Shown here: one piece after another, positions 13,621 to 57,579 of the stretch
How the letters are laid out: each line of letters begins with the position of its first letter
How positions within the stretch are numbered: position 1 is the stretch's first letter
Origin: an uncultured Candidatus Saccharibacteria bacterium
GTDB lineage: Bacteria; Patescibacteriota; Minisyncoccia; Phycocordibacterales; UBA9973
Reading direction: 5' to 3'
Length of the DNA stretch: 64,000 nucleotides
Assembly: GCA_964554645.1 (NCBI GenBank)
Contig: CAZKPK010000001.1
Coordinates: forward strand, 3,697-67,696
The notes under the pieces: model-generated
Database searches by the model: none
Told to the model about the DNA's origin: nothing
The model's input: the letters and a program-made list of their open reading frames with translations, nothing else
Position numbers and translations under genes: made by a program

Positions 13621-13625
13621 GCCAT

Positions 13626-14684: not shown

Positions 14685-14687
14685 AAA

Positions 14688-14735: not shown

Positions 14736-14744
14736 AATAAAGAT

Positions 14745-15953: not shown

Positions 15954-15960
15954 GATTGAT

Positions 15961-16077: not shown

Positions 16078-16241
16078 TTTCTTGCATGTTTTTTTGCCTC
16101 TATATGATATAATTACTCCATTAGAAAAATATTTCAGCCATAGGCTGATCCGCCTTAGGCGGAAAAAATAAGTCGAAAATATATTATTATTAGTTAATTA
16201 TTATTGACTTGCCCCGCTGGGGCGGGGTAGATAAATAAATT

Positions 16242-16706
16242 ATGAAGAATTTTAAAAAAGGTTTTACATTAATTGAACTCTTGGTCGTAGTAGCCATCAT
16301 CGGCATTTTGGCGTCGGTTGTCTTGGCGTCGTTGAATACAGCAAGGACAAAAGGTAAGGACGGAGCTGCACAAACATCCATAGCTAGTGTTAAAGCTCAA
16401 GCTGAAATTTTCTTTACTACTAATTATGGGACTGCGGGTACTATAACTGACGCATCTTCAGCTGGAACTACAAGTGCTTGTGATCAGGCCCAAGTTATAA
16501 ATATTCTTAAGTCTGTAAAAGGAAATACTGGTAGTACCGCAACTTGTGCAGTTGGTCTAGATGGTGCAACATGGGTAGCATGGAGTCAACTAGCTTCACA
16601 GACCTCACCAGCAAACTTCTGTGCGGATAGTACAGGTTTTAGTGGTTCTCGTACAGTTGCTCCTACGTCAGCAGTTACTGCTGCTGTGAGTTGTGCATCT
16701 AGTTAG
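16242..16706 (+). CDS. type IV major pilin (prepilin with class-III signal peptide)
   Basis: KGFTLIELLVVVAIIGILA N-terminal processing/methylation motif; Thr/Ser/Ala-rich globular part; strong terminator follows. Confidence 0.85.
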   Translation: MKNFKKGFTLIELLVVVAIIGILASVVLASLNTARTKGKDGAAQTSIASVKAQAEIFFTTNYGTAGTITDASSAGTTSACDQAQVINILKSVKGNTGSTATCAVGLDGATWVAWSQLASQTSPANFCADSTGFSGSRTVAPTSAVTAAVSCASS

Positions 16707-16747
16707 TAGTGCAAGTGCAAGCAAGGATAATCCTTGATATTTAGAAA

Positions 16748-16773
16748 AACCACCCCAAAAGGGTGGTTTTTTG
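16748..16773 (+). terminator. rho-independent terminator after pilin gene
   Basis: AACCACCC-CAAAA-GGGTGGTT stem-loop followed by T6. Confidence 0.7.
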
Positions 16774-16877
16774 TTTGCGTGTTATATTTGGGTTATGGTA
16801 TGATTAAGAGTAAGAATCAAATATGTTTAACTCGCTTACTAGAAAATATTAATAATTAATTTGTGGATACAAATTTT

Positions 16878-16967
16878 ATGATAAATGCATATATATTAGG
16901 AGCTTTAGTACTTATAGCCCTTATTCTTTTGGTTATTCTTGCAAAGAAAAACAATCAAGAAAAGTAG
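16878..16967 (+). CDS. candidate 29-aa hydrophobic small peptide (MINAYILGALVLIALILLVILAKKNNQEK)
   Basis: ATG-initiated ORF, single predicted TM helix with charged C-tail, bracketed by two near-identical terminators. Confidence 0.3.
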   Translation: MINAYILGALVLIALILLVILAKKNNQEK

Positions 16968-17021
16968 TTTGTTCTAGCTACGGACTAGCTACGGACGTTG
17001 GACGTCCGACGAAGATCAGAA

Positions 17022-17047
17022 AGACCACTCCCAAAAGGTGGTTTTTT
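17022..17047 (+). terminator. rho-independent terminator (near-duplicate of the one at 16748)
   Basis: ACCACTCCCAAAAGGTGG hairpin followed by T7. Confidence 0.5.
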
Positions 17048-17059
17048 TGTTTTCTTTGC

Positions 17060-17470
17060 TTGTGGTATAATCAAAAAATGAATATAAATGAGTTGCAATC
17101 AAAAATGATACCTTTGGCGGAAAAATACAATTTAAAATTAGTTGTTCTTTTTGGTTCGCAGGCTAGTGGACGGACACACAAAAGAAGCGACATAGATATA
17201 GCTGTTATTGGAAAAGTTGCTTTTGATATGACCAGACTCACAATTGATTTTTACAATCTTTTTAATAGAGAAGATGTAGAAATCGTTGATATCAGTAGCG
17301 CTTCGCCCACGACGATGTATGTAGTTGTCCGAGACGGAAAATTGTTATATGAAAGCGAATCCGGGGCTTTTTTGAAATGGAAACTTTATGCAATGTGGGT
17401 TTGGCGAGATACTGCATGGCTAAGAAGATTGCGCGATAAAAAATTGGTAGAGTGGGCCAAAACGGCATAA
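17060..17470 (+). CDS. MNT-type nucleotidyltransferase antitoxin
   Basis: GS-x9-SDIDI nucleotidyltransferase motif (GSQASGRTHKRSDIDIAV), about 135 aa, immediately upstream of HepT-like gene. Confidence 0.75.
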   Translation: MWYNQKMNINELQSKMIPLAEKYNLKLVVLFGSQASGRTHKRSDIDIAVIGKVAFDMTRLTIDFYNLFNREDVEIVDISSASPTTMYVVVRDGKLLYESESGAFLKWKLYAMWVWRDTAWLRRLRDKKLVEWAKTA

Positions 17471-17483
17471 TTCAATAATTCAT

Positions 17484-17912
17484 ATGATACAAAAAGACAC
17501 CATAAAAAAAATAGCTGTTATTCAAGATTATTTGAATGCTCTAGCTCTTTACTTGAAAATTCCTACGGAGGAATTATTGGAAAACAATGAAAAGCGAGCT
17601 GCCATGGAACGTTATTTTATTCTCATGGCAGATGAGGCTTTTGACATCAATAGTGCTTTGGCTTATCAACTCGGTAACAGGATTCCCGAATCAAATAAGT
17701 CAACGTTTTATGAAATAGCGAATTTGGATATAATCAGCAGAGAATTTGCGGATGAGATTTCATTATCCGCGAAGACGAGAAATAATCTCGTTCACGACTA
17801 TGAGAAGGTTCAAGAAAGCGTTCTCATTGAAGAAATGAAGAAATATGCGGAGTTATATAAAAAATATGTAAAGATTCTGATTGAAAAATTTGTGGCAGAT
17901 ATAGGGAAGTAG
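17484..17912 (+). CDS. HepT-like (DUF86) toxin of HepT/MNT type II toxin-antitoxin pair
   Basis: R-x4-H-x-Y catalytic motif (RNNLVHDY), about 140 aa. Confidence 0.75.
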   Translation: MIQKDTIKKIAVIQDYLNALALYLKIPTEELLENNEKRAAMERYFILMADEAFDINSALAYQLGNRIPESNKSTFYEIANLDIISREFADEISLSAKTRNNLVHDYEKVQESVLIEEMKKYAELYKKYVKILIEKFVADIGK

Positions 17913-17955
17913 TCTGATTTTGGTATTTTGTGGTTTAAAGTGATACAATATAACT

Positions 17956-18783
17956 ATGCTTTTTTTGCTTTTGGTTATTTTTTTCATCCTCGGTCTCATC
18001 ATCGGCAGCTTTTTGAATGTGATAATTTATCGGCTGAATACAGCCAGATCGTTCGGAGGCAGGAGCGCTTGTATGTCTTGTCAGAACAGGCTTTGCTGGT
18101 ATGAACTTATCCCACTCTTTAGTTTTTTGGGTCTTGGGGGGAGATGCCGAAGCTGTAAAACTAAAATTTCTATCCAATATCCGTTGGTGGAACTTGCGAC
18201 TGGCTTGATTTTCGCCTTGTTATTTTTTAAACTGCAAGATGTTTTTTATACTAATTCTCTGGTTTTTTTCATCACTTATGATTACTTTGCTTTATTGTTT
18301 TCACTTCTTCTAGTCATTGCCACTTATGATCTCAAACATAAAATAATTCCGGATATTTTGTCTTTTGCTTTTGGCGCGCTTGCTTTTATTGGCCTATTTT
18401 TCTTCTCCGCCCAAGGCGGATCCGCCTTTGGCGGAAATAATATTTTTTACCCCCATTTTCCCACAGTTTTAGAATTTTTGTCGGGTGGATTAATAGCGTT
18501 ACCTTTTGCTTTTTTTTGGCTTGTATCTTCCGGTCGGTGGATGGGGTTAGGGGATGCCAAGCTTGCGCTCGGCATTGGGTGGTTTTTAGGCATATCTTCT
18601 GCGCTCTCGGCTTTAGTGGTTGCTTTCTGGTCTGGAGCCATCGTCGGAATAATTCTCGTTATTTTTTCCAGAAATAGAAAAATTGGCAGGCTGGGGATGA
18701 AAAGCGAAATTCCTTTTGCCCCTTTCCTAGTTTTTGGCGCGTTTCTAGCTTTTATTTTTGGATTGAATCTTTTTGGAATTTAA
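17956..18783 (+). CDS. pilD: prepilin peptidase / N-methyltransferase PilD (A24 family)
   Basis: polytopic membrane protein with cytoplasmic CxxC...CxxC tetrad (CMSCQ...CRSCK) and conserved Asp residues. Confidence 0.9.
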   Translation: MLFLLLVIFFILGLIIGSFLNVIIYRLNTARSFGGRSACMSCQNRLCWYELIPLFSFLGLGGRCRSCKTKISIQYPLVELATGLIFALLFFKLQDVFYTNSLVFFITYDYFALLFSLLLVIATYDLKHKIIPDILSFAFGALAFIGLFFFSAQGGSAFGGNNIFYPHFPTVLEFLSGGLIALPFAFFWLVSSGRWMGLGDAKLALGIGWFLGISSALSALVVAFWSGAIVGIILVIFSRNRKIGRLGMKSEIPFAPFLVFGAFLAFIFGLNLFGI

Positions 18784-18792
18784 AAGAATTTT

Positions 18793-19383
18793 ATGTTTAA
18801 GTTGAGTAAAAAAATAAAAAATAACAAAGGAATGACTTATATAGAACTTATTGTTGTTCTCTCTATTTTTGCCATTATGTCTTCCATTATTCTTTATAAT
18901 TATGGAGAATTTCAGGCAAAAGTGGATATCAAAAATTTAGCCAGCGATATCGCTTTGAAAATTGTTGAGGCGCAGAAGTCAGCGCTTTCTGGAAAATGGA
19001 CTTCTGGCGCGGTGGATGGTTGGAAACCATCTTATGGTATATATTTTAATACTTCCAGTGCTGATGAAAAAAAGAAGTTTACTTATTTTGCAGATTTTAA
19101 TAACGATAAAATATATAACGATACTCCGCTAGATACAATAAGTATTACAAAAGGCAATTATATAGAAAAAATAGAAAGTTGCGCAGGTTCTCCCACTATT
19201 TGCGCTTTGGTCACAAACTCCTTTTTGTCAATCATTTTTACAAGACCAAATTCTGGCGCAGTTTTTAGTTCCTTGAGTGGCATACTAACTGGTTTTGATT
19301 ATATTCAAATCACTATTTCCTCACCCCAAGGTAAAACAGCCTTAATAAAAATCTATCCTTCGGGGAGGATACAAGTAAATTAG
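18793..19383 (+). CDS. minor pilin / pseudopilin with class-III signal
   Basis: KGMTYIELIVVLSIFAIM N-terminus. Confidence 0.75.
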   Translation: MFKLSKKIKNNKGMTYIELIVVLSIFAIMSSIILYNYGEFQAKVDIKNLASDIALKIVEAQKSALSGKWTSGAVDGWKPSYGIYFNTSSADEKKKFTYFADFNNDKIYNDTPLDTISITKGNYIEKIESCAGSPTICALVTNSFLSIIFTRPNSGAVFSSLSGILTGFDYIQITISSPQGKTALIKIYPSGRIQVN

Positions 19384-19414
19384 GTTTTAGGTTCTAGCTA
19401 CTAGGTTCTAGTAA
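19381..19414. repeat. CTAG-rich direct-repeat motif (TAGGTTCTAG x2) immediately after stop codon
   Basis: taggttttaggttctagctactaggttctag; related copies at 37583-37628, 45747-45771 and 16970-17011. Confidence 0.6.
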
Positions 19415-19423
19415 TACAAAAAA

Positions 19424-20044
19424 ATGCAAGATAAAAATAACAAACAAAAGAGGTTCACCCACCAAAATTTTCTAAAGAAAATTTCAGGCGGGTTCACTAT
19501 AATCGAAACAATGATTGCTATCTCTCTTTTTTTGGTTGTTGTCATGTCAGGCATGAACGCTCTTTTGAATGCTAATTTGCTTCATCAAAAATCGGGAGAC
19601 ATGCGTTCTATTTTGGATAATTTAAGTTTTATTATGGAAGATATGTCTAGAAATTTAAGGACGGGGTATGATTATTATTGTATCCTAGCTGGAGAAACAA
19701 TTCCCAGTGGGACAGTTAATCCTCGAAGTTGTACTGACGGAGTAGGAATTTCCTTCAAATCTGCTACTAGTGGTCAGTGGGTATATTATGTAGGTAATAA
19801 TCCTAATAGCGTGTATGGTATTTTTAGAAAAATTGGAGCAGAAACCGTTCAATTGACTCCCAATGAAGTTGTTATTACGTCAACTTCTCTTGTTTCAGTT
19901 TTAGGCGCAGAACCGCCACCGGGCAACAGCCAACAACCCTTTGTTACTATTAGATTAGTCGGAAAAATAATCTTAAAAAATAATGTTGAAACGCCATTTT
20001 CTTTGCAAACCTCGGTGTCCCAAAGGTTAATAGATGTTATATGA
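19424..20044 (+). CDS. minor pilin / pseudopilin
   Basis: GGFTIIETMIAISLFLVVV prepilin motif. Confidence 0.75.
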   Translation: MQDKNNKQKRFTHQNFLKKISGGFTIIETMIAISLFLVVVMSGMNALLNANLLHQKSGDMRSILDNLSFIMEDMSRNLRTGYDYYCILAGETIPSGTVNPRSCTDGVGISFKSATSGQWVYYVGNNPNSVYGIFRKIGAETVQLTPNEVVITSTSLVSVLGAEPPPGNSQQPFVTIRLVGKIILKNNVETPFSLQTSVSQRLIDVI

Positions 20045-20586
20045 GTAAATTTTTTAAACAAAAAAATACGGCTTTTACTTTAGTAGAAACGCTTGTGGCT
20101 ATTTCGATTTTTACCGTATCCTTGCTTGGAATAATGTCTGTTTTGGCTTCTGGTATTGCCAATACGAATTATGCCAAACAAAAAATGGTTGCCACCTATC
20201 TAGCGCAAGAGGGCATTGAATATATCAGGAATATGCGGGATACTAAGGTCTTGTATGGGTCGGGGGATAGTAATGCCAAATGGAATCAATTTAAATCTGA
20301 TCTTAGCCCATGCAATAATGATAGCGATCATGCATGTGGTTTTAATACAGTCTTTCCTTATGATGTTTCTACATGTCCTTCTCTTAATGATTGTAAATTA
20401 TATGTGAACAATGGGGGTTATAACACTAATTCAAGTGGTACGGACTCTGGTTTTGTTCGCAAAATTTGGATGGACACGGCCGGTCTAGGTTCAGACGAAG
20501 TAAAAATTTTTTCAAAAGTTGAATGGACTACAGGTTCTGGAGTTAAAAGTGTAACTTTTTCCGAAAATTTATTTAATTGGTGGTAG
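20041..20586 (+). CDS. minor pilin / pseudopilin
   Basis: AFTLVETLVAISIFTVSLLG prepilin motif; 4-nt overlap with upstream gene. Confidence 0.75.
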   Translation: MSKFFKQKNTAFTLVETLVAISIFTVSLLGIMSVLASGIANTNYAKQKMVATYLAQEGIEYIRNMRDTKVLYGSGDSNAKWNQFKSDLSPCNNDSDHACGFNTVFPYDVSTCPSLNDCKLYVNNGGYNTNSSGTDSGFVRKIWMDTAGLGSDEVKIFSKVEWTTGSGVKSVTFSENLFNWW

Positions 20587-20593
20587 AATAATC

Positions 20594-23222
<2,629 letters not shown>

Positions 23223-33507: not shown

Positions 33508-34095
33508 ATGAAAAAATTAATCTTAGCTTCAAGTTCAAGCACAAGGAAAAATTTGCTTACAGAAGCCGGCTTGAATTTTGAAATTGATCCAAGTAGTTAC
33601 GAAGAAGATATAACATTATTAATGTCTCCAAAAGAATTAGTGGCTCATTTATCTTACGGTAAAGCAAAAGATGTAGCATCGAGGCACCAAGAAGCCATAG
33701 TTCTAGGAGCTGATACAATTATTGTCTATCAAGATAAAATTCTCGGTAAACCTCATACATCGGAAAGAGCTAAAGAAATGTTAAAAATGTTAAGTGGTAG
33801 GGCACACTTAGTTGTTACTGGTTTTACAATAATTGATACGAAAAATAATCATAGCATCTCCAAAGTTGTAGAAACAGAAGTGTTTTTCAAAAATCTCACA
33901 GATAGAGAAATAGATAATTATGTAGCTACCGGTGAACCACTGAATAAAGCAGGGGCTTATGCAATTTTAGAGAATGGTGGCAAATTTGTTAAAAAGATCG
34001 AAGGAAGTAGAACAAATGTGTCAGGTTTACCCATGGAGGAGTTAATGAATGTTCTAAAAAATTCCCATAGGTCAGACCTATGGGATGTGTTATAA
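33508..34095 (+). CDS. maf: Maf-like nucleoside-triphosphate pyrophosphatase; C-terminus encoded by a REP element
   Basis: KLILASSSSTRKNLL...GKP...; final residues ..NSHRSDLWDVL are a translation of REP copy B2. Confidence 0.85.
   Translation: MKKLILASSSSTRKNLLTEAGLNFEIDPSSYEEDITLLMSPKELVAHLSYGKAKDVASRHQEAIVLGADTIIVYQDKILGKPHTSERAKEMLKMLSGRAHLVVTGFTIIDTKNNHSISKVVETEVFFKNLTDREIDNYVATGEPLNKAGAYAILENGGKFVKKIEGSRTNVSGLPMEELMNVLKNSHRSDLWDVL
34063..34086. repeat. Family-B REP (TTCCCATAGGTCAGACCTATGGGATG)
   Basis: perfect palindrome; 5' flank of RAYT gene and 3' end of maf. Confidence 0.85.
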
Positions 34096-34102
34096 TAGCA
34101 GT

Positions 34103-34780
34103 ATGAGTCTCAGAGATTCGAATTTAGTGGAAAAAGAGTATTATCATATTTACAATCGCGGTAATGGAAAAAATAAAATTTTTAATTCCATAGAAGATTA
34201 CGATCGTTTTTGTAAACTTCTTTTTATTTGTAATTCTGAAAGAAGTTTTACATTCAGAGATTCAGTCGTAGATCAAAAAATTGATGCCTGGGATTTTGAA
34301 AGGGGAGAACCGCTTGTGGAAATATGTGCATGGGTTTTAATGCCTAATCATTTCCATATAATTTTAATTTCCCATAGGTCGGACCTATGGGATGAGAAGT
34401 ATAATCCAATAACGGAATTTATGAGAAAACTTTCTACGGCTTACGCTATGTATTTTAATAAGAAATATAACCGCACTGGATCTCTTTTTGAAGGAAAGTT
34501 TAAGTCTAAACATATTAGCAAAGATAATTATTTCCATTATTTATTTTCTTACATTCATCTTAATCCAATTAAATTAATCCAACCAGATTGGAAAGAAAAT
34601 GGTATCAAGAATAAAAAAGAAGCGATTGCTTATCTTATGAATTTTAAATATTCAAGTTTTCAAGATTTTTATGGTGTCTCTAGAAAAGAAGGAAAGATAA
34701 TAAATAAGAATTCGTTACCAGAAGATTTTAAATACAATCATGTTGAGGAACTTTTTGAATGGATAACTGATTCCCCATAG
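34103..34780 (+). CDS. REP-associated tyrosine transposase (RAYT; IS200/IS605-like Y1 HuH transposase)
   Basis: HIYNRG motif, HuH motif (PNHFHIIL), catalytic Tyr region (YIHLNP); flanked by, and interrupted in-frame by, Family-B REPs; stop codon TAG lies inside REP B4. Confidence 0.8.
   Translation: MSLRDSNLVEKEYYHIYNRGNGKNKIFNSIEDYDRFCKLLFICNSERSFTFRDSVVDQKIDAWDFERGEPLVEICAWVLMPNHFHIILISHRSDLWDEKYNPITEFMRKLSTAYAMYFNKKYNRTGSLFEGKFKSKHISKDNYFHYLFSYIHLNPIKLIQPDWKENGIKNKKEAIAYLMNFKYSSFQDFYGVSRKEGKIINKNSLPEDFKYNHVEELFEWITDSP
34369..34394. repeat. Family-B REP inserted in-frame inside the RAYT gene (encodes SHRSDLWD)
   Basis: TCCCATAGGTCGGACCTATGGGATG immediately after the HuH motif codons. Confidence 0.85.
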
Positions 34781-37636: not shown

Positions 37637-38593
37637 ATGGCCAATAGGCACCTTTCCAGATCAATAGTGCTCCAAACGCTTTTTGAGTGGGATTTTATGT
37701 CCGCTGGGAAAGAGAGTATCAGTTCTATTAATGGCGAGATTAAGAAAGTATTGGACAGAAATTTAAAAGAATTTGCTCCCGGACTCGAAGATGACAGTTT
37801 TGTTTTTTCGCTTTTAAATGAAGTGTTAAAAAATTGTGTTCGGGTTGATCAAATTATAGAAACATCAGCGCCGGATTGGCCGATAAATAAAATTTCTGTC
37901 GTTGATAGAAATATTCTCCGAATCGGATTAACGGAACTTCTTTTCAGCGACCGATCGCAAGTGCCCCCAAAAGTGGCGATTAACGAAGCGATTGAATTGG
38001 CAAAAACTTTTGGCGGAGAGAATTCCAGTAAATTTATAAACGGCGTACTCGGAGCAGTTTATAAAGAAATGGGTGAACCTGGCAAGGAGCAAACGAGCAA
38101 AAAGAAAAATCGCAATCAATCCAAAGAACAGGGAAAAACGTTGGACCTCACCAAACTGCCGGTTGAAAACTTGGGCGGCGCGTTAGTTTATGCAACAAAA
38201 GATGGGAATATTTTATTTGCGCTTGTGCATGATGTTTTTGGCTACTGGACTCTTTCTAAAGGCAAAGTCGAAAAAAAGGAAAGTGTTCAGGAAGGGACAG
38301 TAAGAGCAATCAAGAAGGAAATCGGGCTTGATGTTGTGCTAGAAGAAAAACTTGGGGAAAATGAATATGTTGCAACCCACCCAGAAAAAGGAAAAAGCCT
38401 GAAGAAAGTTATATATTTTTTGGCGTATAGCGAATACAAGGAGCTTATTTTGGAAAAATCCGGCGGACTCGATGGGGCCAGATGGTTTGAAATGATGGAG
38501 GTGCCGGAACTTCGCATTTATAATGACATTATTCCGCTTATTGAAAAGGCGGTCGAAATATTGAGCAGTAAAAAACAAAAGAACAGTCAATAA
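37637..38593 (+). CDS. NusB-like N-terminal domain fused to a C-terminal NUDIX hydrolase domain
   Basis: NusB-like helix bundle (HLSRSIVLQTLFEWDF ... AINEAIELAK) plus Nudix box-like GKVEKKESVQEGTVRAIKKEIG. Confidence 0.6.
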   Translation: MANRHLSRSIVLQTLFEWDFMSAGKESISSINGEIKKVLDRNLKEFAPGLEDDSFVFSLLNEVLKNCVRVDQIIETSAPDWPINKISVVDRNILRIGLTELLFSDRSQVPPKVAINEAIELAKTFGGENSSKFINGVLGAVYKEMGEPGKEQTSKKKNRNQSKEQGKTLDLTKLPVENLGGALVYATKDGNILFALVHDVFGYWTLSKGKVEKKESVQEGTVRAIKKEIGLDVVLEEKLGENEYVATHPEKGKSLKKVIYFLAYSEYKELILEKSGGLDGARWFEMMEVPELRIYNDIIPLIEKAVEILSSKKQKNSQ

Positions 38594-38617: not shown

Positions 38618-39313
38618 ATGATTCAACTTTCAAATTTTGAGAAAAAAACAAAAATAATTTTTAGGGATAAGAATTTGCTCAAACAAGCTTTTATTCATCG
38701 TTCTTACATAAATGAAAATCCGTCGACCACTCTTTCGCACAATGAACGCTTAGAATTTCTGGGAGATGCCGTGCTGGAACTTATTGTCACAGATTTTCTT
38801 TATAAAAAATACCCGAATTATACGGAAGGGGAACTGACTGCTCTGCGTTCAGCTTTAGTTAATGCTGTCATTATTTCTGAAGTTGCCGCCAAAATCGGCA
38901 TGAATGATTATTTGCTTTTATCTAAAGGAGAAGCCAAAGATGGCGGCAAAGCCAGACAGTATATTTTGGCAAACACATACGAAGCCTATATTGGAGCCAT
39001 ATATTTGGATCAAGGAATAAATATCGCGGATAAATTTGTCAGGAAAACCCTTTTGCTCAAAACGGATGAAATAGTAAATAAAAAACTTTGGCGGGATGCG
39101 AAATCTCTAGTGCAAGAAAAAGCGCAGGAGTTAGTGAATGTTACGCCTGCCTATAAAGTGCTAAAAGAATCCGGTCCCGATCACGATAAAAATTTTACAG
39201 TTGGTATTTATTTTGGCGGGAGTTTGATAGCCGAAGGCAAAGGTCAATCCAAGCAAGAAGCAGAACAATCTGCCGCCCTGAATGCGTTAAAGGTAAAAAA
39301 TTGGCTGGATTGA
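38618..39313 (+). CDS. rnc: ribonuclease III
   Basis: RNase III signature ERLEFLGDAVL and C-terminal dsRBD. Confidence 0.92.
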   Translation: MIQLSNFEKKTKIIFRDKNLLKQAFIHRSYINENPSTTLSHNERLEFLGDAVLELIVTDFLYKKYPNYTEGELTALRSALVNAVIISEVAAKIGMNDYLLLSKGEAKDGGKARQYILANTYEAYIGAIYLDQGINIADKFVRKTLLLKTDEIVNKKLWRDAKSLVQEKAQELVNVTPAYKVLKESGPDHDKNFTVGIYFGGSLIAEGKGQSKQEAEQSAALNALKVKNWLD

Positions 39314-39316
39314 AAG

Positions 39317-39595
39317 GTGTTGAACTGGCTCAAAGTTGAGTTGCCTTCTCAAGCCCTTTTTGTTATTATATACATTATGAATACTATTACTGTGTCTAAA
39401 AACAAAATAGAAAAAGAGGGTGGAGTAGTACTTCTTTCCCTTAGGGAGTATCGAAAAATTCAAATGTCTTCGATGCCTATTTATTACTTGCAAAGCAAAG
39501 AAGCAAGGAATTTGGATAAATTGGTAAAAAACGGGCTCAAGAGTTATAAAGATGGTAAAACTAAAGTTCTGAAATCTTTTGCGGATTTTGATTAA
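39317..39595 (+). CDS. putative antitoxin of RelE-type TA pair
   Basis: small ORF directly upstream of, and nearly abutting, a RelE-like toxin gene; no recognisable motif of its own. Confidence 0.4.
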   Translation: MLNWLKVELPSQALFVIIYIMNTITVSKNKIEKEGGVVLLSLREYRKIQMSSMPIYYLQSKEARNLDKLVKNGLKSYKDGKTKVLKSFADFD

Positions 39596-39599
39596 TTTT

Positions 39600-39866
39600 A
39601 TGAAGATACGAGAGGTGCGGATTAATGCCAGATTTGAAAAGAATTATAAAAAACTTCCCTATAAAATAAAGGGCAAAGCGAAAGTCAAAGAAAGAATTTT
39701 TAGAGAAAATGTTTTTCATTCGATTCTTCGCACTCATAAATTGCACGGTGAGGAAAAAGAAGCTTGGGCCTTTTGGATTGATTACACTTATCGCATTAAG
39801 TTTATTTTTCTTAGTGAAGGAGTTGTGCTTTTTCTAGATGTTGGCACTCATGATATTTATAATTAA
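39600..39866 (+). CDS. RelE/YoeB-family mRNA-interferase toxin
   Basis: LHGEEKEAWAFWIDYTYRIKFIF...LFLDVGTHDIY pattern typical of RelE/ParE-fold toxins. Confidence 0.6.
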   Translation: MKIREVRINARFEKNYKKLPYKIKGKAKVKERIFRENVFHSILRTHKLHGEEKEAWAFWIDYTYRIKFIFLSEGVVLFLDVGTHDIYN

Positions 39867-39948: not shown

Positions 39949-42117
39949 ATGCGACTCAAAACTCTTGAACTGAATGGCTTTAAATCTTTTTCTCAAAAAA
40001 CAGTTTTGGAGTTTGATAACAGTATTGTCTGCATTGTCGGTCCGAACGGTTCAGGAAAATCAAATGTAGTAGAAGCCATCCGTTTTGTCTTGGGCGAGCA
40101 ATCAATGAAATCAATGCGTGGCAAGACGGGCGTTGATCTCATTTTCAAAGGATCCAAAAATTTGCCTAGGAAAACGCGGGCGGCCGTTACAATATATTTC
40201 AATAACTCTGACAAAATTTTTAGGCTTGAGGATGGTGTAGGAGAAAACATGAATTTGAATTATGACACTATCAGCATAACGCGCCAGGTTTTCCCTGACG
40301 GACTCAATAAATATATTTTAAATGGGACAGAAGTGCGCCTGAAAGATATTCACCACCTTCTGGCCTCGGTTAACATAGGTTCTTCCGGGCATCATATTAT
40401 TTCCCAGGGCGAGGCTGATAGGATTCTGAATGCCAGCCCAAAAGATAGGAAGGAAATGGTGGAAGATGCGTTGGGGCTCAAAATTTACCAGTATAAAATA
40501 AAAGAATCTGAGAGAAAACTGGAAAGAACAGAGAACAATATGAAAGAAGTGACCATGTTGCGCAGAGAAAATGCTCCGCACCTTAATTTCTTAAAGAAAC
40601 AAGTAGAAAAATTTGAAAGGGCGAAAGAAATGCAGGCAGAGTTAGCAATTCTCTACCAAGAATATTTAAAAAAAGAAAACGTTTATTTAAATAAAGAGAA
40701 GGAAAATTTTCTCGCAGAAAGAAATAAAATAGCCAAAGAACTGGAAAGTGTTGTTAGTAAAATTTCTCTGACTGAAGACAGTGGTTCAGCTAAGGGAAAT
40801 CAAAAAATAGAGGAGCTAAGAACTATTGAGCAAAAATTAAATGAAATCCGCAGCGCCAAGGGAGAAATGAACAGAAAACTGGGAAGAATTGAAGGGATGA
40901 TAGAGGCCAAACAGAATAGAGTTAAAATTTCTGGCCGGTGTCCCATGTGTGGCAGAGAGTGGGGGGAAATGAGCAAAGAACAACTCGAAAACAGAGAAAA
41001 CAATCAGCAAGAATTAGCAGAATTGAAAAATTCTCAAGCTGGTATTCTAACGCAGGTGCAGGAAATGGAAAATAAAGAGAAAGAGCTTGTCGATCAGATA
41101 GAAGAATTGAAGCAGGAAATAAATAAACAGATGGAAACCTTGCGCGATTTGGAGCGGGAGAAGTTCAGCTTTAAGGTTAGGCATCAGGAATTGTCTTCAG
41201 CTTTGGAACTGGTGCGCATCAAAGAAACGAATTTAAAAGGCAGGCTTGAAGCCTTTGAAAGTGAGATCAAAGAAGGTGTAGCGCTTATAGGTCAAGAGAT
41301 TTTGTCCTATCCGCCCGAGGCGGACCAGCCTTGGGCTGGTAAAGAAATAGATGAAACAAGGCAAGCTGAGTTAAAGAAAAAAATTGAGCGTTTGAAAATA
41401 AAATTGGAAGATGCCGGTCTTGGCGGCGGAGCGGAAGTTTTGAAAGAATTCAAAGAAGTTTCGGAGAGGGATAATTTTTTAGCGAAAGAAATGGAAGATT
41501 TATCTAAAAGCATGGTGGCGTTGCAAAAGCTCATAGAAGATTTAAAGGAAAAGATAGACACAGAATTCAAGGAGGGTATCAAAAAAATAAACAAAGAATT
41601 TCAAGAATTTTTCTCCTTAATGTTTGGCGGGGGGACGGGATCTCTTGCGATAGTGGTGGAGAATAAAAAGAGACGAAGTATGAGCGAAGAAGAGGCTAAA
41701 TTCAGCGAAGCTGAATCGCCCGACGCTTCTGAAGAAGCGTTTAGGGAAGAGATTGTTTTTGAACAGGGCATAGAAATAAATGTTTCACTTCCTCATAAAA
41801 AGGTCAAAGAGCTTCAGGCGCTCTCGGGCGGGGAGCGATCACTCACTTCTATTGCTCTTCTCTTTGCGATGTCGCAAGTGAATCCTCCGCCATTTTTGGT
41901 GCTTGATGAAACCGATGCTGCGCTGGACGAAGCCAACTCGCGCAAATATGGAGATATGTTGGAAAAACTTTCCAAACATTCTCAGCTTATTGTTGTTACC
42001 CACAACCGCGAGACGATGTCCCGCGCCGGCGTGCTCTATGGCGTAACGATAGGCGGAAATGACACCTCCAAGCTTCTTTCTGTTAAATTCGAAGAAGCCA
42101 CCCAAATTGCGAAATAA
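39949..42117 (+). CDS. SMC-family ATPase, short form (722 aa) with CPxCG zinc-hook-like motif in place of a hinge
   Basis: SMC N-head (LELNGFKSF...IVGPNGSGKSNVVEAIRFVLGEQS..S.RG), SMC C-head (LSGGERSLTSIALLFAM..PPPFLVLDETDAALDEAN; VLYGVT), long coiled-coil heptads, central ISGRCPMCGREWGE. Confidence 0.8.
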   Translation: MRLKTLELNGFKSFSQKTVLEFDNSIVCIVGPNGSGKSNVVEAIRFVLGEQSMKSMRGKTGVDLIFKGSKNLPRKTRAAVTIYFNNSDKIFRLEDGVGENMNLNYDTISITRQVFPDGLNKYILNGTEVRLKDIHHLLASVNIGSSGHHIISQGEADRILNASPKDRKEMVEDALGLKIYQYKIKESERKLERTENNMKEVTMLRRENAPHLNFLKKQVEKFERAKEMQAELAILYQEYLKKENVYLNKEKENFLAERNKIAKELESVVSKISLTEDSGSAKGNQKIEELRTIEQKLNEIRSAKGEMNRKLGRIEGMIEAKQNRVKISGRCPMCGREWGEMSKEQLENRENNQQELAELKNSQAGILTQVQEMENKEKELVDQIEELKQEINKQMETLRDLEREKFSFKVRHQELSSALELVRIKETNLKGRLEAFESEIKEGVALIGQEILSYPPEADQPWAGKEIDETRQAELKKKIERLKIKLEDAGLGGGAEVLKEFKEVSERDNFLAKEMEDLSKSMVALQKLIEDLKEKIDTEFKEGIKKINKEFQEFFSLMFGGGTGSLAIVVENKKRRSMSEEEAKFSEAESPDASEEAFREEIVFEQGIEINVSLPHKKVKELQALSGGERSLTSIALLFAMSQVNPPPFLVLDETDAALDEANSRKYGDMLEKLSKHSQLIVVTHNRETMSRAGVLYGVTIGGNDTSKLLSVKFEEATQIAK

Positions 42118-44154: not shown

Positions 44155-44433
44155 TTATTCTAATAACTTTGGATGCGAGCCTATGTCTACCAAAAGCAAC
44201 ACTAATTCTTTTTCTAAAATTTTATATATTAACAAAACATTCGGATATATATGACATTCGCGCGCGCCTTCCAATTTGCCTTTTAATTTATGGTCTCTAT
44301 ATGCTGGGTCTAGGGGAATTTGTTTCTGAATTAATAATATTATTTTTTCAAGTTTAAAAATAGAAAAACTCTCATGCCTTAAGTATATTTTCAAAGACTT
44401 TTGATATTTCTTTGATTTAATTACCGAGAGCAT
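44155..44433 (-). CDS. YafQ/RelE-family toxin
   Basis: RDHKLKGKLEG.RECHI.PN.LLIY....L.L...GSH pattern. Confidence 0.7.
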   Translation of the reverse strand: MLSVIKSKKYQKSLKIYLRHESFSIFKLEKIILLIQKQIPLDPAYRDHKLKGKLEGARECHIYPNVLLIYKILEKELVLLLVDIGSHPKLLE

Positions 44434-44721
44434 TTATTTCTTGTTTAAAATAGTAGAATGCAATTCTCTAATGCTTTTATAAGATTTTATTTTTTTATTT
44501 TTAAGATCATTCACGGTATTTTCTATTTCTTTGGCAAGCTCGGACTCATATTCATCAGTATATCCATTTATAGTTTTTAGTTCAAAGGGAATGCGCTGTT
44601 GTTCCACACTTTGGTGCAAAAAGAGCTTCACTGCACTCGATATATCGAGTCCCATGCGCGCAAAAGTCTTACGGGCGTCTTCTTTTATCTTTTCGTCAAT
44701 TCGTATATTTAATGTAGTCAT
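44434..44721 (-). CDS. DinJ/RelB-family antitoxin (RHH)
   Basis: MTTLNIRIDEKIKEDARKTFARMGLDISSAVKLFL ribbon-helix-helix N-terminus; trimmed from ORF 44434..44895 to the internal Met that sits 7 nt after a sigma70-like promoter. Confidence 0.65.
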   Translation of the reverse strand: MTTLNIRIDEKIKEDARKTFARMGLDISSAVKLFLHQSVEQQRIPFELKTINGYTDEYESELAKEIENTVNDLKNKKIKSYKSIRELHSTILNKK

Positions 44722-44728
44722 AGAATTT

Positions 44729-44756
44729 AGTATATACATTGTGCGCACAAAGTCAA
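44729..44756 (-). promoter_or_regulatory. sigma70-like promoter of the DinJ/YafQ operon with palindromic operator in the spacer
   Basis: minus strand TTGACT-16 nt-TATACT, 7 nt before ATG; spacer contains perfect palindrome TTGTGCGCACAA (44739-44750). Confidence 0.5.
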
Positions 44757-44892
44757 GTCTTGACAATAGGGTCAAGATATGCGATACTATCAGAGATATG
44801 TTTTTACCTTTGTTGATAGTTATAGCTATCATCATGCTATGCGTGACGATGGCGTGGTTGAAGGACGAGGATAGGTAATTCTCGTCCAAGTT

Positions 44893-44933
44893 CAAAAAGC
44901 TGGCACGTCCAAGGTCGTGCTAGCTTTTTTGTT
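44893..44933. terminator. bidirectional stem-loop terminator-like structure
   Basis: AAGCTGGCACG-tccaaggt-CGTGCTAGCTT hairpin with T-runs on both strands. Confidence 0.45.
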
Positions 44934-46895: not shown

Positions 46896-49800
46896 ATGCA
46901 TCTAGAAACAAAATTTCCGAAAAAATATTTTTCAAGATATAAAAAACCTCTGGTAGAATTTCCAAATTTAATTGAAGCGCAACTTAAATCTTTTAAATGG
47001 CTAATAGAAAGCGGCATTGGCGAAGTGTTCAAAGAATTTTCTCCTATCAGCGATTACTTCGCAAAAAAATTCCAGCTCGAATTTGCATCTTTTTCTCTCG
47101 GCGAGTCAAAAACTGACGAAAATAATTCAAAAATAAATAAACTTTCCTACCAGGGATTGCTTAAGGCTCGGGTAAAACTGACTAATAAAATTTTAGGCAC
47201 TGTGAAAGAGCAGGAAATTTTTTTATCGGAGTTTCCTTTGATGACCTCTCATGGAACTTTCATTATAAACGGCGTGGAGCGTGTGATTGTGCCGCAGCTT
47301 GCTAGAAGCTTCGGAGTTTTTTTTACAGAGTCTGAAAATAAAGGCAATCGATATTTCGGCGCTAAAATTATACCGGCTCGCGGAGTTTGGATCGAAATAG
47401 AATCTGAGTCAGATGGCGGTATTTATGTGAGAATAGACAAAAAGAGAAAATTTTCTGCGACCGCGCTTCTGCGAGTGATGGGTTATGAAACTAGTGAAGC
47501 GATATTGAAAGGTTTTTCTGCCCAAAGCGTTGCGTCCAAAGATGGACAAGGATCAGTTTCAAATTTGGAAACAACAATCAAAGCTTGTTTGGCGAAAGAT
47601 GGAATTAAGAATTTAAATGACTCATATATTGAAATCTACAAGCGTCTAAGAGATGGCGATATGGCAACGGCTGAAAACGCCAAAGAGTTTATTAATTCTT
47701 TATTTACTACTGAAAGATATGACCTTTCTCCGGTTGGTCGTTTTAGGTTTAATCAACGTTTCAACAAACCTATGGATGAAGCGGCGCTGGCCAGGAGAAC
47801 TATTTCTAAAGAAGATCTGGTAACGGTGATTATGAACATTATTGCTCTGAACAATGACCCCGATGCCAAATCTGACGATATAGATCATTTAGGCCAAAGG
47901 CGGGTGAGGTTTGTCGGTGAAATTTTTCAACAGAAAATACGTACCGGCATGATGCAAATCAAGAGGAATATTCAAGATCGAATGTCTATCGTTGATGTTG
48001 ATACCGCGATGCCCATCGCTATTATCAATCAACGCCCGCTTCAGGCTCGAATAAAAGAATTTTTCACCACCAATCAGCTTTCCCAATTTATGGCGCAAGA
48101 AAATGTGCTTTATGAAATAGAACACTTGCGCACTCTCTCGGCTTTGGGACCCGGAGGTCTTACCCGCGAGCGCGCGGGTTTGGAAGTTCGCGATGTGCAT
48201 CCTTCCCATTACGGAAGAGTTTGTCCGATTCACACTCCGGAAGGTCCGAACATCGGTCTTATTTTACACCTTTCCACTTACGCCAAGATAAATGAGTTTG
48301 GCATTATTGAAACTCCATACATAAAAGTCAAAAATGGCAAACTGACCAAAGAGATAGTTTATTTAAATGCGCTGGAGGAAGAAAAATATAATATTGCGCA
48401 TGCCGGAATTTCTTATGATGAAAATGGGAAAATAACGGAAGAAAAAGTAGAGGCTCGGATTAAGACGGAACCGGGCGCAATTTCCCGCGAGGAAGTTGAT
48501 TTTATCGATGTTTCTCCCAATCAGGCTTTTTCCATAGCAACCTCAATGATTCCGTTTTTGGAACACAATAATGCCAATCGGGCATTGATGGGATCTAACA
48601 TGCAGAAGCAGGCTGTGCCTTGCGTGTTGCCCGAGGCGCCTATGGTGGCGACAGGTATTGAAGAATTGGCGGCGCGGGATTCAGGCAGATTAGTTATAGC
48701 GCTGGAGGATGGTGTGGTTTCTTATTTAGACGCAAGAAAAATAATTGTTAAAGGAAAAAATGAACAGACCTATCCTCTCGTTAATTTTATGAGAAATAAT
48801 AACTTTGCTGTATTTCACCAGCGCCCGTTGGTTAATGTCGGAGATAAAGTAAAAAAAGGCGATATCTTGGCGGATACCAGCAGTACCGTCGGCGGACAAA
48901 TTTCTTTGGGACAGAACATCTTTGTAGCCTTTTTGTCTTGGTCTGGATCAACCTATGAGGATGCAATAGTAATTTCAGAGCGTTTAGTTAAAAAAAGTAA
49001 ATTTACAAGCGTTTATGTTGAAGAATTCACTTGCGTAGTTCGCGATACAAAACTTGGACCTGAAATTACCACTCGCGATATACCGAATGTCGGAGAACTC
49101 AAACTCAAAGATCTGGATGAAGATGGTATTGTCCGCATTGGAGCGGAGGTCAGAGAAAATGATATTTTAGTCGGTAAAATTACTCCGAAAGGCGAGACGG
49201 AACTTACTCCGGAAGAACGGCTTTTGCGCTCAATTTTTGCCGAAAAAGCGCGGGATGTGAAAGACACCTCCTTGCGAGTAGAACACGGCAAGCGCGGTCG
49301 CATTATTGGCGTAAAAATTTTTTCCCGCGACTTAGGACATACGCTGGAAGCGGGAATTATCAAAAAAATTGTGATTGAAGTTGCCCAGATCAGAAATATT
49401 TCAGTTGGGGATAAGCTTTCTGGACGGCATGGAAACAAAGGAGTTATTTCAACAATTCTGCCGGAAGAAGATATGCCTTACATGGCGGACGGCACGCCAA
49501 TTGATATCATACTTTCGCCACTCGGTGTTCCTTCTCGTATGAACTTGGGACAAATTTTTGAAATGCATCTCGGGATGGCGGCCAATAGTCTTGGTTACCA
49601 GGCAATTGTTCCGCCATTTTTGGGAGCCAAACACGAAGAAATTAGAGAAGAATTAAAAAAGGCCGGACTGCCAGAGAATGGCAAATTGAAACTTTTTGAT
49701 GGACGCACCGGAGAGGCTTTTGAACAAGATGTTGCCGTTGGTTATATGTATATGTTGAAACTTCACCATATGGTGGAAGACAAGATTCATATGCGTTCAA

Positions 49801-53100: not shown

Positions 53101-53791
53101 TCCCGCCTCTGGCGGGACAGGTGTAAAATCTGCTCACTCCCGCGATATTTCAGGATCCGGCGGGGAAAAAATAATCAAAGTGCTTTCAGATCTGGAAGAT
53201 AGTAAGGCGGGGGCTAAAAACGAAATAGAATATCTTGTTCCGTTTCACAGAATGCCTACCGTTAAAGCAGGTGATCACATAAAGAAAGGGGATCTCCTAA
53301 CTGACGGGTCAGCGGATATTGCTGAAATGTTTAAATTTGGCAACAAGGAATTAGTCGAAAATTATATAATTCGGGAAATAAACAAAGTTTATGAATTGCA
53401 AAGCGCTTCAATTTCCAGAAAGCATACGGAAATAATTATCCGCCAAATGTTTTCGCGCCGAAAAATAAAAGACGCGGGCGACACTAATTTTTCCATCGGC
53501 GATATTGTTGAGAATACCGCATTTATAGAAGAAAATCAGAGAGTTGCGCGCTTGGCGGTTAAACCGCCAAGCGCGCTTGGCGGTTTAACCGCCAAAGCAG
53601 AAACAGTGGTGCTTGGTATCACGGAAGTGTCGCTTCGCACTAAAAGTTGGCTCTCGGCGGCTTCGTTCCAAAACACCAATCGCGTTCTTATTGAAAACGC
53701 GGTCAAGGGCGGGGTAGATTCTTTGAGAGGGTTAAAAGAGAATGTTATAATCGGTAGGTTAATTCCGGCTGGAACTGGATTTAAAAAATAA
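50120..53791 (+). CDS. rpoC: DNA-directed RNA polymerase beta' subunit, with in-frame Family-C repeat near the C-terminus
   Basis: Zn-binding CxxC..CxxC, NADFDGD catalytic motif, trigger loop, C-terminal VIVGRLIPAGTG; residues RLAVKPPSALGGLTAKAE encoded by repeat 53547-53598. Confidence 0.97.
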   Translation: MKTLNTTEFNSIALRLASPEQIKEWSFGEVTKPETINYRTGRSERGGLFDEKIFGPEKDYECYCGKYRRIRYKDIICEKCGVEVTRSIVRRERMGHIELGTPVSHIWFLRGVPSRMSILLNISVTDLEKVIYFAGYIITKVHEDEKEAVIANLDKEYKSKLKNATDDDTREKLKNLLSITKKEIGEIYEGKVLNEISFHHYSLKYGTCFEANIGAEAIYSIFKNLDLDKLKTHTEKMIEKASVAEKEKLQKRLSLIRAMTYAGIRPEWMFLTVFPVIPPVLRPMVALDGGRHATSDLNDLYRRVINRNNRLKKLKEINAPDVILRNEKRIIQEAVDALIDNSIAKQNDSAAMSQSQKRPLKSLSDNLKSKQGLFRQNLLGKRVDYSGRSVIVVGPELKLNQCGLPKHMALELFRPFVISKILQAELAFNIRGANKLIEERGGEVWAMLEEVIAGKYVLLNRAPTLHRLGIQAFNPILIEGNAIQVHPLVCQAFNADFDGDQMAVYVPLLEEAQWEAKEFMASNKNLLKPQNGDPIVHPRMDMVLGSFWMTKSIEGEVGEGKYFSRPNTAVTAYDYGIISMRAKIKVLPMDKPKYKKFNGEIFETTVGRIIFNSILPDDFHYVNDEMTQDRLSSLLDELIMHSGVENIPHILDTIKAFGFKYSTISGTTWGLDNVSVSSEKPKIIAEGKKLEKEIISQWQEGLLSEEEKYQKVIEVWTHMKKNLEKVLPKTVDKHSSTYDIFTSKARGTMSSLMQMTGMIGLIQNNQGKTLEFPIIPCYQEGLSPIEYFVITHGARKGASDTALNTAKAGYLTRRLVDVAQDVVITEVDCGTKEGRIVTKENISGIEIPLSKNIRGRVLAGDLKNKNGKVVYKKGFLVTKEEAYNIEGAGFTEVFVRSPLTCRTVHGLCVMCYGLDLGRNRLVELGEAVGIIAAQAIGEPGTQLTLRTFHAGGVAGTDITTGLPRVEEIFERRIPKNPAIISETDGEVIEIKIKDPASGGTGVKSAHSRDISGSGGEKIIKVLSDLEDSKAGAKNEIEYLVPFHRMPTVKAGDHIKKGDLLTDGSADIAEMFKFGNKELVENYIIREINKVYELQSASISRKHTEIIIRQMFSRRKIKDAGDTNFSIGDIVENTAFIEENQRVARLAVKPPSALGGLTAKAETVVLGITEVSLRTKSWLSAASFQNTNRVLIENAVKGGVDSLRGLKENVIIGRLIPAGTGFKK
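53102..53118. repeat. GC-rich hairpin TCCCGCC-TCT-GGCGGGA inside rpoC
   Basis: perfect 7-3-7 palindrome in otherwise AT-rich coding sequence; a second related GGCGGGG at 53153-53163; similar CCCGCC...GGCGGGC pair in pheT at 29701-29759. Confidence 0.4.
53547..53598. repeat. Family-C palindromic repeat (GCGCGCTTGGCGGTTAAACCGCCAAGCGCGC plus TTGGCGGTTTAACCGCCAA) in-frame inside rpoC
   Basis: 31-nt perfect palindrome followed by second unit; same core as ligA copy. Confidence 0.85.
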
Positions 53792-55761: not shown

Positions 55762-57579
55762 ATGTCCTCATCAGTTGACCAAATTAAATCACGAATAGAC
55801 ATCCTCTCGCTTGTAAGCTCTTATATCAAGCTAGATAAGGCAGGAGCGAGTTGGAAAGCCAAATGTCCGTTTCATAATGAAAAAACACCCTCATTTTTTG
55901 TCTCGCCGGAACGGGGGAGTTATTATTGTTTTGGTTGCGAGGCTTCGGGAGACATTTTCACTTTTGTGGAAGAATTTGAAGGGTTGGATTTTAAGGGCGC
56001 TCTGAAACTTTTAGCAGATCGCGCAGGAGTGGTGCTTGAAGTTTACAGTCAGGAAAAGAAAGAAGTAGGTGAATTGATTTTTTTGGAGAAAGAAAAATTA
56101 TATCGAGTGATGGAAGAAACCACGAAGTTTTTTGAAAATAATTTTCCGCCCAAGGCGGATCAGCCTCGAGCTGAAAAGGAAATAAAAGAAGCATTAGAGT
56201 ATCTGAAATCGCGTGGTTTAACCGATAAAACTATCAAAGATTTTAGAATAGGTTATGCCATTCTTGATTGGCGAACACTTTATGATTACCTAAAGTCTAA
56301 GAATTTTTCTGATGAAGAAATAGAGCTTGCCGGATTGGCCAAGAAACCGGAAGACAAGACAAAAGCAATGTATGACCGCTTTCGCGGACGCATAATGTTC
56401 CCAATTTCCGATTCCAGTGGCCGGATTATTGCTTTTTCGGGAAGAATTCTGATTGATGATGGAAAATCGGCGAAGTATTTAAATAGTCCGGAAACCCCGA
56501 TATTTAATAAATCTTCCGTGCTTTTTGGCATAGATAAAGCAAAAGATTCCATCCGCAAAAATAACTTTTCCATTTTAGTTGAAGGGCAGATGGATTTAGT
56601 TTTATCGCATCAGGTCGGTTTTAAAAATACTGTTGCATCTTCTGGCACGGCGATGAATGATTCGATAATATCTAAAGAGAACATTATAAATAATTTAGGG
56701 CTTGTTTGCAGATTATCTAAAAATATCGTTCTGGCTTACGATGCTGACAAAGCGGGAGTGAATGCTTCCAATCGTTTTGCAAAAATCGCATTATCTTTAG
56801 GGATGGATGTGAAAGTGGCCAGTATGAGAGAGGGTGTCGATCCAGCCGATATTATCTCCAAAGAGGGTAAAGATGCGTGGCATCAAGCAATCCGAGATTC
56901 AAAACATTTTATTCCATTTATGCTAGAGCGAATCTTGAAAGATGCATCTGGTGATGGAAGAAAAGTGGGCAGAGGAATTCAAGAACGTCTTTTGCCTTTT
57001 CTGAAGGATTTAGACAGCGCGATGGAAAAATCCCATTTTATCAAACTTATTAGCGATAAATCCGGCATAGCTGAAAAAGCTCTAATGGAGGATTTGCAGA
57101 AAGTAGAGTCAGAATTGAAATATGAAACAGAAGAAATCAAAATCGCGAAAGAAAATGTGGACAAAAAATTGAGAAAAGATCCGATTGAACGCAGACTGCT
57201 GGGAATAGCTTTTTGGCAGGAAAGTGTTAAAAGTAAGATCGTAGATCCAGAAATCATTTTTGCGAAACTAGGTAAAGTGAAGGAATATTATAAAGACAAA
57301 AAAGAAGATTTAATTTTCGAAGCGGAAGCTTTTTATTCCAATAGCGAAAACTTACAAAAAGATGTGCGAGAGATGCTACTTTCGATTGAAGAAGAATATC
57401 TTAATGAGGAGCTTGTTAAGAAAATGATAGAACTTAAAAATCTGAAAGATGAAAAGGCTAAATCCAATGTAATTGGATCGCCCGACACTTCAGCAAAAGT
57501 GTTTAGGGACGAAGCAGAAATTTTAAAAAGAATAAATGAAATAAATAAGAGGAAAGAAGAAATTAAAAATAGTCGCTAA
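55762..57579 (+). CDS. dnaG: DNA primase
   Basis: CHC2 zinc finger ([30 protein letters not shown]), TOPRIM ([10 protein letters not shown]), DnaG core. Confidence 0.9.

Follow-up and report, generated by a model that had tools for sequence, protein, structure and literature searches.

A half-length, hinge-less Smc with a putative apical CPxCG zinc hook in Candidatus Nomurabacteria

It is disputed whether the Smc hinge actively gates or binds DNA or merely serves for dimerisation, and also how the length and rigidity of the arms link ATP hydrolysis with DNA translocation. A natural Smc orthologue that carries a hook, on arms about two superhelical periods shorter, bears on both disputes, and the question raised by one gene in a 64,000-nt stretch of contig CAZKPK010000001.1 (hereafter the window) is whether it encodes such a protein. 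The open reading frame (ORF) starts with ATG and encodes 722 amino acids (aa), the length given in an earlier note on this DNA, and the SMC-type motifs quoted there were all located in the product (Table 1). The protein is identical to MBI2627493.1, named 'AAA family ATPase' in a metagenome-assembled genome (MAG) of Candidatus Nomurabacteria (GCA_016186455.1, contig JACPLP010000008.1, 75,354 bp), and the exact sequence was found on three contigs. We propose that it is a naturally minimised Smc (condensin) orthologue of Candidatus Nomurabacteria, with a canonical head, a half-length arm and a Rad50-type hook for a hinge, and we put the probability of this reading at roughly 0.7.

The ATPase heads are of the Smc type. 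The protein scored 525.8 bits against TIGR02168 (SMC_prok_B), just under the equivalog cut-off of 567.35, with which the name 'AAA family ATPase' is consistent. Scores below the respective cut-offs were also obtained with the NCBIfam models of Rad50 (51–83 bits; cut-offs 700–1087) and SbcC (35 bits; 478.5), with the RecN model TIGR00634 (54.7 bits; 407.85) and with the ASRP model NF045487 (60 bits; 300), while the PADLOC models of defence SMCs gave 115 bits (LmuB) and 46 bits (JetC), far under the Smc score. The best match in a PDB search was the head of Bacillus subtilis Smc (3ZGX, 1.7e-76), with Rad50 heads at about 1e-13, and Pfam placed one SMC_N domain over residues 3–706 (4.6e-60). The residues of the Walker A, Q-loop, signature, Walker B, D-loop and H-loop motifs are invariant across the half-length family described below. 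The earlier view of the heads as canonical SMC, and not those of Rad50/SbcC or RecN, was therefore borne out. Membership of the RecN family was rejected on the head score and that of Rad50/SbcC on the head scores together with the gene context; archaeal ASRP/ClsN was rejected on its score and because the host is a Patescibacteria bacterium, and the defence SMCs (Lamassu LmuB, Wadjet JetC) on their low scores and the housekeeping genes that surround the locus.

No hinge was recognised between the two halves of the head. SMC_hinge (PF06470) had no match in the 722-aa protein, even at E ≤ 1, and when the central region was compared by hhalign with a profile of the hinges of 27 canonical SMCs, the probability was 0.4%; these results agree with the earlier claim that a globular hinge is missing, and they rule out the degenerate hinge that the same note had raised as an objection to itself. 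The full-length AlphaFold2 (AF2) model, built from a shallow alignment (predicted local distance difference test, pLDDT, 68; heads poor) and used for secondary structure only, has helices over residues 178–325 and 343–559, short breaks apart, on either side of a loop at 326–342. The middle of the protein is thus predicted to be the continuous coiled coil that had been anticipated, and the loop at its apex is only about 15 aa long (AF2). A frameshift or assembly artefact was ruled out, since more than 120 clusters (90% identity), drawn from many independent assemblies, show the same architecture; some of these clusters occur on 16–47 contigs.

The apical loop carries the motif CPxCG. In the window protein and 120 homologue clusters, which share 51–89% identity with the window apex fragment and 72–87% over the full length, C331, P332, C334 and G335 are invariant (121/121 sequences). 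There are only three cysteines in the window protein (28, 331 and 334); Cys28 varies among the 121 sequences, and the hook pair are the sole conserved cysteines. A PDB-wide phmmer search with the 161-aa central region returned the Rad50 zinc hook of Pyrococcus furiosus (1L8D, E = 2e-7) and 6ZFF (E = 1.9e-6), with 'SGRCPMCGREWG' aligned opposite 'KGKCPVCGRELT' of 1L8D, and eight of the nine residues of the core GRCPMCGRE are identical to those of P. furiosus GKCPVCGRE. As controls, the central regions of P0121, the closest Cys-free relative, and of P0187, which has another type of hook (Vogelbacteria-type), gave no Rad50 match at E ≤ 1, so the match to 1L8D is not a matter of mere coiled-coil composition. 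An AF2 model of residues 262–410, made from the 121-sequence alignment, shows a helical hairpin tipped by the CPMC loop (pLDDT 80 overall and 50–70 in the apex loop). Foldseek, run against 350,542 PDB chains, placed 1L8D at ranks 1–2 (template modelling score 0.78 on the target), 6ZFF at rank 4 and human Rad50 (5GOX) at rank 8. The likeness of CPMCGRE to the Rad50 hook, first remarked on in the note, is therefore supported by both phmmer and Foldseek.

The protein belongs to a wider family of similar size. In a search of 1.84 billion 50%-identity representatives, the best 150 matches (41–70% identity) were 663–782 aa long, a few fragments apart, and Pfam detected a hinge in none of the 10 representatives tested. 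The central CxxC was present in only 8 of these 150 matches. The apex of the remainder spans 55–97 aa and many of the proteins lack cysteine altogether; P0121 ('...VVSHEEVIKIVGEVNNYIDEALDKDNLAEVSAILSRIKIILNKF...') is an example. In the Cys-free apex, about 70 aa long, the sequence pattern suggests a pair of short amphipathic helices; this apex had no Pfam match, and hhalign against the hinge profile gave a probability of 1.4%. All of the SMC loci from GTDB species representatives (about 20 among the matches listed, a sample of the taxonomic distribution and not a census) come from Patescibacteria MAGs and all are Cys-free. Among Patescibacteria SMCs, the majority are half-length proteins that have no hinge and whose apex is Cys-free. 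The Cys-free half-length proteins (P0121, P0123–P0270 and P0271–P0389; loci L003–L025, L083, L089 and L090) are typically named 'AAA family ATPase'. A 924-aa SMC homologue encoded at 10001–12775 of locus L040, from a MAG labelled Gammaproteobacteria, has a centre without hinge-like sequence or CxxC and may be a longer-armed hinge-less form.

The relationships within this family bear on the origin of the hook. In neighbour-joining trees with the apex masked, the window hook clade and Cys-free P0121 formed an exclusive clade in 40 of 40 bootstraps. P0121 belongs to a large Cys-free group of proteins from Nomurabacteria, Paceibacterota and Minisyncoccia, and a Cys-free sister, P0273, has a locus identical to that of the window SMC. 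The apex of P0121 resembles the apex of distant family members (P0129 was compared), and the hook of the window clade is therefore probably derived, having replaced a Cys-free apex in situ. Thus the claim that a hook stands in the place of the hinge needs qualification: the hook does occupy the tip of the arm and there is no hinge, but what it appears to have replaced is a Cys-free apex and not the hinge directly. A second hook group ('K.CP[YV]CGQ'), from Vogelbacteria and relatives, made up 40 of the 119 P0187 matches examined and has a different gene context; the origins of the hooks outside the window clade fell into 3–8 clades across neighbour-joining bootstraps. The trees are distance-based, and in them the separation of the window clade from other hooks and its sister relation to Cys-free proteins are robust. 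On the reading proposed here, the ancestor from which a large Patescibacteria family descends had already lost the hinge, and later, in the window clade, a hook replaced the Cys-free apex. Perhaps, and we rate this as somewhat short of an even chance, Patescibacteria in general organise their chromosomes with a half-length hinge-less Smc whose tip is an exchangeable module, at least two lineages (the Nomurabacteria type, 'G[RK]CPxCG.E', and the Vogelbacteria type, 'CxxCGQ') having independently evolved or captured a Rad50-like zinc hook.

The arm is short for a bacterial Smc. Alignment to the B. subtilis head construct, combined with the AF2 helices, gave an N strand of about 160 aa (170–330) and a C strand of about 195 aa (337–530), the latter including a loop of about 20 aa in which a repeat element is inserted; the average of about 170–177 aa, compared with 344 aa in B. 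subtilis, suggests an arm of about 22–25 nm, roughly half that of B. subtilis. Natural prokaryotic Smc arms have modes at 238, 341 and 515 aa and minor modes at 163 and 423 aa, and a functional arm periodicity of about 91 aa has been described (PMC5344682). Taking two periods from the B. subtilis arm (344 minus 2 x 91) leaves 162 aa, which is near both the present estimate and the minor mode at 163. As the published survey required alignment of the hinge, it probably missed hinge-less proteins. Along the arm, the N strand has a short break at residues 275–281, where relatives carry patchy inserts, and the C strand contains a loop (448–468) and a GLGGG break (490–494). The head-proximal 'neck' of the C strand (IERLKIKLED...ERDNFLAKEMEDL) shows strong conservation and could be aligned to its C-terminal counterpart in B. 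subtilis Smc. In the C-terminal half of the head there is a variable acidic loop (573–604).

We propose that Cys331 and Cys334 from each of two protomers would together form one tetrahedral Zn2+ site and that the shared ion would give a constitutive apical dimer. The heads would engage and disengage with ATP, a cycle that is proposed because all the catalytic motifs are intact. A kleisin probably closes the ring, with which the conserved neck and its alignment to the B. subtilis neck are consistent, and DNA would be entrapped and extruded as by Smc-ScpAB. The lumen would be smaller than that of Smc-ScpAB and suited to a genome of about 0.6–1 Mb.

The position of the gene is that of a housekeeping smc. 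Its neighbours are rnc, two small ORFs without a family match, and the gene for RNase R, and no Mre11 or SbcD gene adjoins it, as the earlier note had observed; neither protein was found in the window, in the rest of the 75-kb contig or beside the SMC gene in related loci. The gene order (minus signs mark the reverse strand) is UvrD-like helicase-nuclease, pheS, pheT, gyrB, maf, an IS200-like gene, thrS(-), rpmF, nusB-NUDIX, rnc, the two small ORFs, SMC, rnr(-), a YafQ/RelB pair, rpsP, a KH protein gene, trmD, rpoB and rpoC. The nusB-NUDIX/rnc/SMC order is repeated in the loci of relatives (L001, L083, L084, L089 and L090). The classic rnc-smc order supports positional orthology with bacterial smc, as supportive and not defining evidence.

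Table 1. Coordinates of the smc gene, its domains and motifs, and associated features in the window
Feature	Residues	Nucleotides	Strand	Remarks
Whole gene	1-722	39949..42117	+	Half-length, hinge-less Smc with apical CPxCG putative zinc hook
N-terminal half of ABC ATPase head	1-170	39949..40458	+	Aligns with B. subtilis Smc head residues 2-206
FKSF	11-14
GPNGSGKSN	31-39	40039-40062	+	Nucleotides refer to Walker A GPNGSGKS
VLGEQS	47-52
Q-loop SQGE	152-155
N-terminal strand of coiled-coil arm	~171-327	40459..40929	+	AF2 helices 178-274, 282-325
Apical motif ISGRCPMCGREWGE	327-340
Apical loop, putative zinc hook	328-342	40930..40974	+	Conservation, phmmer, Foldseek
CPMC	331-334	40939-40950	+	Cys331-Pro-Met-Cys334-Gly, 40939-40953
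C-terminal strand of coiled-coil arm	~343-545	40975..41583	+	AF2 helices 343-447, 469-489, 494-559
GC-rich double-hairpin element in C-arm loop		41310..41340	+	In frame, encodes PPEADQPWAG; carried by only some homologues
C-terminal half of ATPase head	~546-722	41584..42114	+	B. subtilis Smc C-terminal head alignment, 103 bits
Signature LSGGE	625-629	41821-41835	+
Walker B/D-loop LDETDAALDEAN	652-663	41902-41937	+
H-loop THN	684-686
VLYGVT	695-700
rnc (RNase III)		38618..39313	+	Upstream of smc

Several observations weigh against the assignment as a minimised condensin. The window, the rest of the contig and about 30 related loci yielded no ScpA, ScpB or other kleisin, the searches for partner genes having covered about 10% of the genome (about 75 kb). 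ScpA and ScpB were sought with phmmer, using B. subtilis sequences that are possibly inexact, and with the motif 'GP[LIVMF][DE]x[LIVM][LIVM]', in the window ORFs and 26 Patescibacteria loci; the neighbourhoods of five further family members also contained no ScpA/ScpB. A second, canonical SMC may be encoded elsewhere in the genome. The Foldseek E-values were weak (0.02–0.1), as is usual for coiled-coil hairpins, the Pfam model Rad50_zn_hook (PF04423) scored below threshold (15.1 bits, E = 0.021; cut-off 24.3), confidence in the full-length AF2 model is low (pLDDT 68) and the arm-length estimate depends on approximate domain boundaries. Zinc binding and dimerisation through the hook, like the kleisin partnership and the role in chromosome organisation, are what we infer from these comparisons.

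These points can be accommodated in other ways. In canonical Smc, ScpA binds the head-proximal neck, and the protein could instead have departed, with the rest of the half-length family, from the Smc-ScpAB mechanism and act without a kleisin as a zinc-bridged dimer that bridges or clamps DNA, after the manner of ClsN (coalescin). That a kleisin gene was seen in none of about 30 loci and that the 722-aa protein scores under the TIGR02168 equivalog cut-off would fit such a dimer, as would the precedent of archaeal ClsN/ASRP, short SMC-related proteins with a zinc hook (PMC9389158). We nevertheless consider it unlikely, as the neck is strongly conserved and aligns with that of B. subtilis Smc, the similarity to ASRP is just 60 bits against a cut-off of 300, and scpAB is usually unlinked to smc, so that its absence nearby says little. 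A slightly smaller chance is given to a sensor or repair ATPase for DNA breaks, similar to Rad50/SbcC and no condensin, that would have Smc-like heads and a nuclease encoded elsewhere. A hook on short arms is the architecture of Rad50/SbcC, the apex matches the P. furiosus Rad50 hook, ScpAB was not found in the window, contig or related loci, and a gene for a UvrD-PD-(D/E)XK helicase-nuclease lies 11 kb upstream. This explanation is hard to reconcile with heads that score 526 bits against Smc but at most 83 against Rad50 and 35 against SbcC, with the conserved rnc-smc housekeeping position, with the lack of an adjacent SbcD/Mre11 gene in every locus examined, and with closest relatives that occupy the same locus without any hook.

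Another possibility concerns the CxxC itself, which might be a redox-active or disulfide motif, or an intramolecular metal site at the tip of the arm, and not an intermolecular zinc hook. The sub-threshold Pfam hook model and the pLDDT of 50–70 in the loop leave some space for it, the zinc in the hook being putative. Yet with two conserved cysteines only, a four-ligand intramolecular site would not be available, and the motif lies exactly at the hairpin apex, as in Rad50, and shares eight of nine core residues with the P. furiosus hook; we regard this explanation as very improbable. A minimised Smc with an apical zinc hook is thus the reading that we prefer.

Comparison with known systems places the protein closest to Smc in its heads and to Rad50 at its tip. 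It resembles B. subtilis Smc of the Smc-ScpAB complex in head sequence, ATPase motifs, neck, antiparallel arm and rnc-smc order, and differs from it in size (722 aa instead of about 1,186 aa), in arm length (about 170 aa instead of 344 aa), in a CPxCG loop at the apex with no hinge, and in a TIGR02168 score of 525.8 where the cut-off is 567.35. With the Rad50/SbcC hook (1L8D, 6ZFF, 5GOX; PF04423) it shares a CxxC at the apex of an antiparallel coiled coil and a nearly identical core ('G[RK]CPxCGRE'), but it has Smc-type heads and no Mre11/SbcD gene nearby, and the Pfam hook model is sub-threshold. The archaeal ClsN/coalescin and Sph1/2 proteins (ASRP) are SMC-superfamily ATPases of about 600 aa in which a zinc-hook motif takes the place of the hinge, and they have been implicated in chromosome organisation (PMC9389158). 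ASRP is, however, a distinct archaea-specific family (60 against 300 bits), whereas the present protein is bacterial, with canonical Smc heads and an smc locus. From ocean metagenomes, Sussfeld et al. (2025; PMC12153180) reported a clade of 'hinge-less SMC' as a divergent form of SMC and not of Rad50; it branches within Actinobacteria and is explicitly said to have no CXXC. By that description it differs from the present family, which is found in Patescibacteria and of which this member has a hook. In the literature on the candidate phyla radiation (CPR) together with SMC, hinge, zinc hook or ScpAB, we found no description of a hinge-less or hook-bearing Patescibacteria Smc.

In bacteria, the combination of Smc with a Rad50 hook was previously known only as an engineered chimera. 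In B. subtilis Smc(Zh) the P. furiosus Rad50 hook takes the place of the hinge, and growth with this chimera is normal (Buermann et al., 2017; PMC5344682); the design is therefore viable, and truncations of Smc(Zh) were functional only in periodic length windows (PMC5344682). Both proteins join Smc heads and arm to a Rad50-type hook. Unlike the window protein, the chimera is artificial, with near full-length arms and a grafted hook; the protein described here is natural, with arms that are shorter by about two periods and with a native hook. If it is the sole SMC of its host and still loads and extrudes DNA, the hinge fold would be dispensable for bacterial condensin function, a quantisation of arm length in units of about 90 aa would be suggested, and the Smc(Zh)/Mini-Smc experiment would already have been done by nature. 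Together with sister lineages in which the same locus encodes another kind of hinge-less tip, the protein provides a ready-made comparative system. There is also a consequence for annotation, since with scores just under the Smc equivalog cut-off and names such as 'AAA family ATPase', CPR genomes may wrongly seem to lack SMC.

Other features of the locus were recorded. The two small ORFs between rnc and smc overlap (39317–39866, +; 92 and 95 aa) and have no Pfam match; the second looks by eye like a RelE/ParE toxin. They are missing from L001, L083 and L090, where rnc abuts smc, and the small ORFs found beside smc in different lineages are mutually unrelated. NusB carries a NUDIX hydrolase domain fused at its C terminus (37637–38593, +), and the fusion is kept in the Paceibacteria-type loci examined (L001, L083, L084, L089 and L090). 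Between rnr and rpsP there is a toxin-antitoxin pair (44155–44895, -), made up of a YafQ-family toxin and RelB. Further away, at 7244–21037 (+), is a large type IV pilus cluster, a typical Patescibacteria trait, that encodes PilM-like, PilB, PilT and PilC proteins, a response regulator, several pilins and a prepilin peptidase.

The inserted element in the C-arm loop of Smc is one of many. The window, from an AT-rich genome, contains 45 GC-rich perfect hairpins, compared with 3.6 in shuffles; they form 28 elements and are often paired as double hairpins of about 30–40 nt. About 19 of the 28 elements lie inside long ORFs and are translated in frame as short peptide inserts, such as 'PPEADQPWAGKE' in Smc and a 12-aa insert in DnaG. 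Besides the element listed in Table 1 (41310–41340) and a second one in smc (about 41700–41742, within the acidic loop of the C-terminal head half), sites are found in dnaG (56145–56159), rpoC (53553–53594 and 53101–53117), ligA (21356–21801), the prepilin peptidase gene (18406–18435) and rpoB (48163–48178), and in an intergenic region (16134–16163). The same inserts are patchy among otherwise divergent Smc homologues, and the elements resemble Rickettsia palindromic elements or repetitive extragenic palindromic (REP) sequences. An ORF similar to IS200/Y1 transposases (34085–34780, +), with a weak Pfam Y1_Tnp match and the HUH motif NHFHIIL, might be a REP-associated transposase for these elements. 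Repeat copies linked with it are located at 14711–14745, 34062–34096 and 34369–34403, and the hairpin family 'TTCCCATAGGTCnGACCTATGGGA' occurs once within this ORF and once more at the 3' end of maf. Repeats also contribute to protein sequence in the DUF559 (Vsr-like endonuclease) ORF at 9010–9522 (+) and its neighbour at 8295–8945 (+), which have repeat-encoded N-terminal segments ('HPSRGE' repeats; families D3 and D6).

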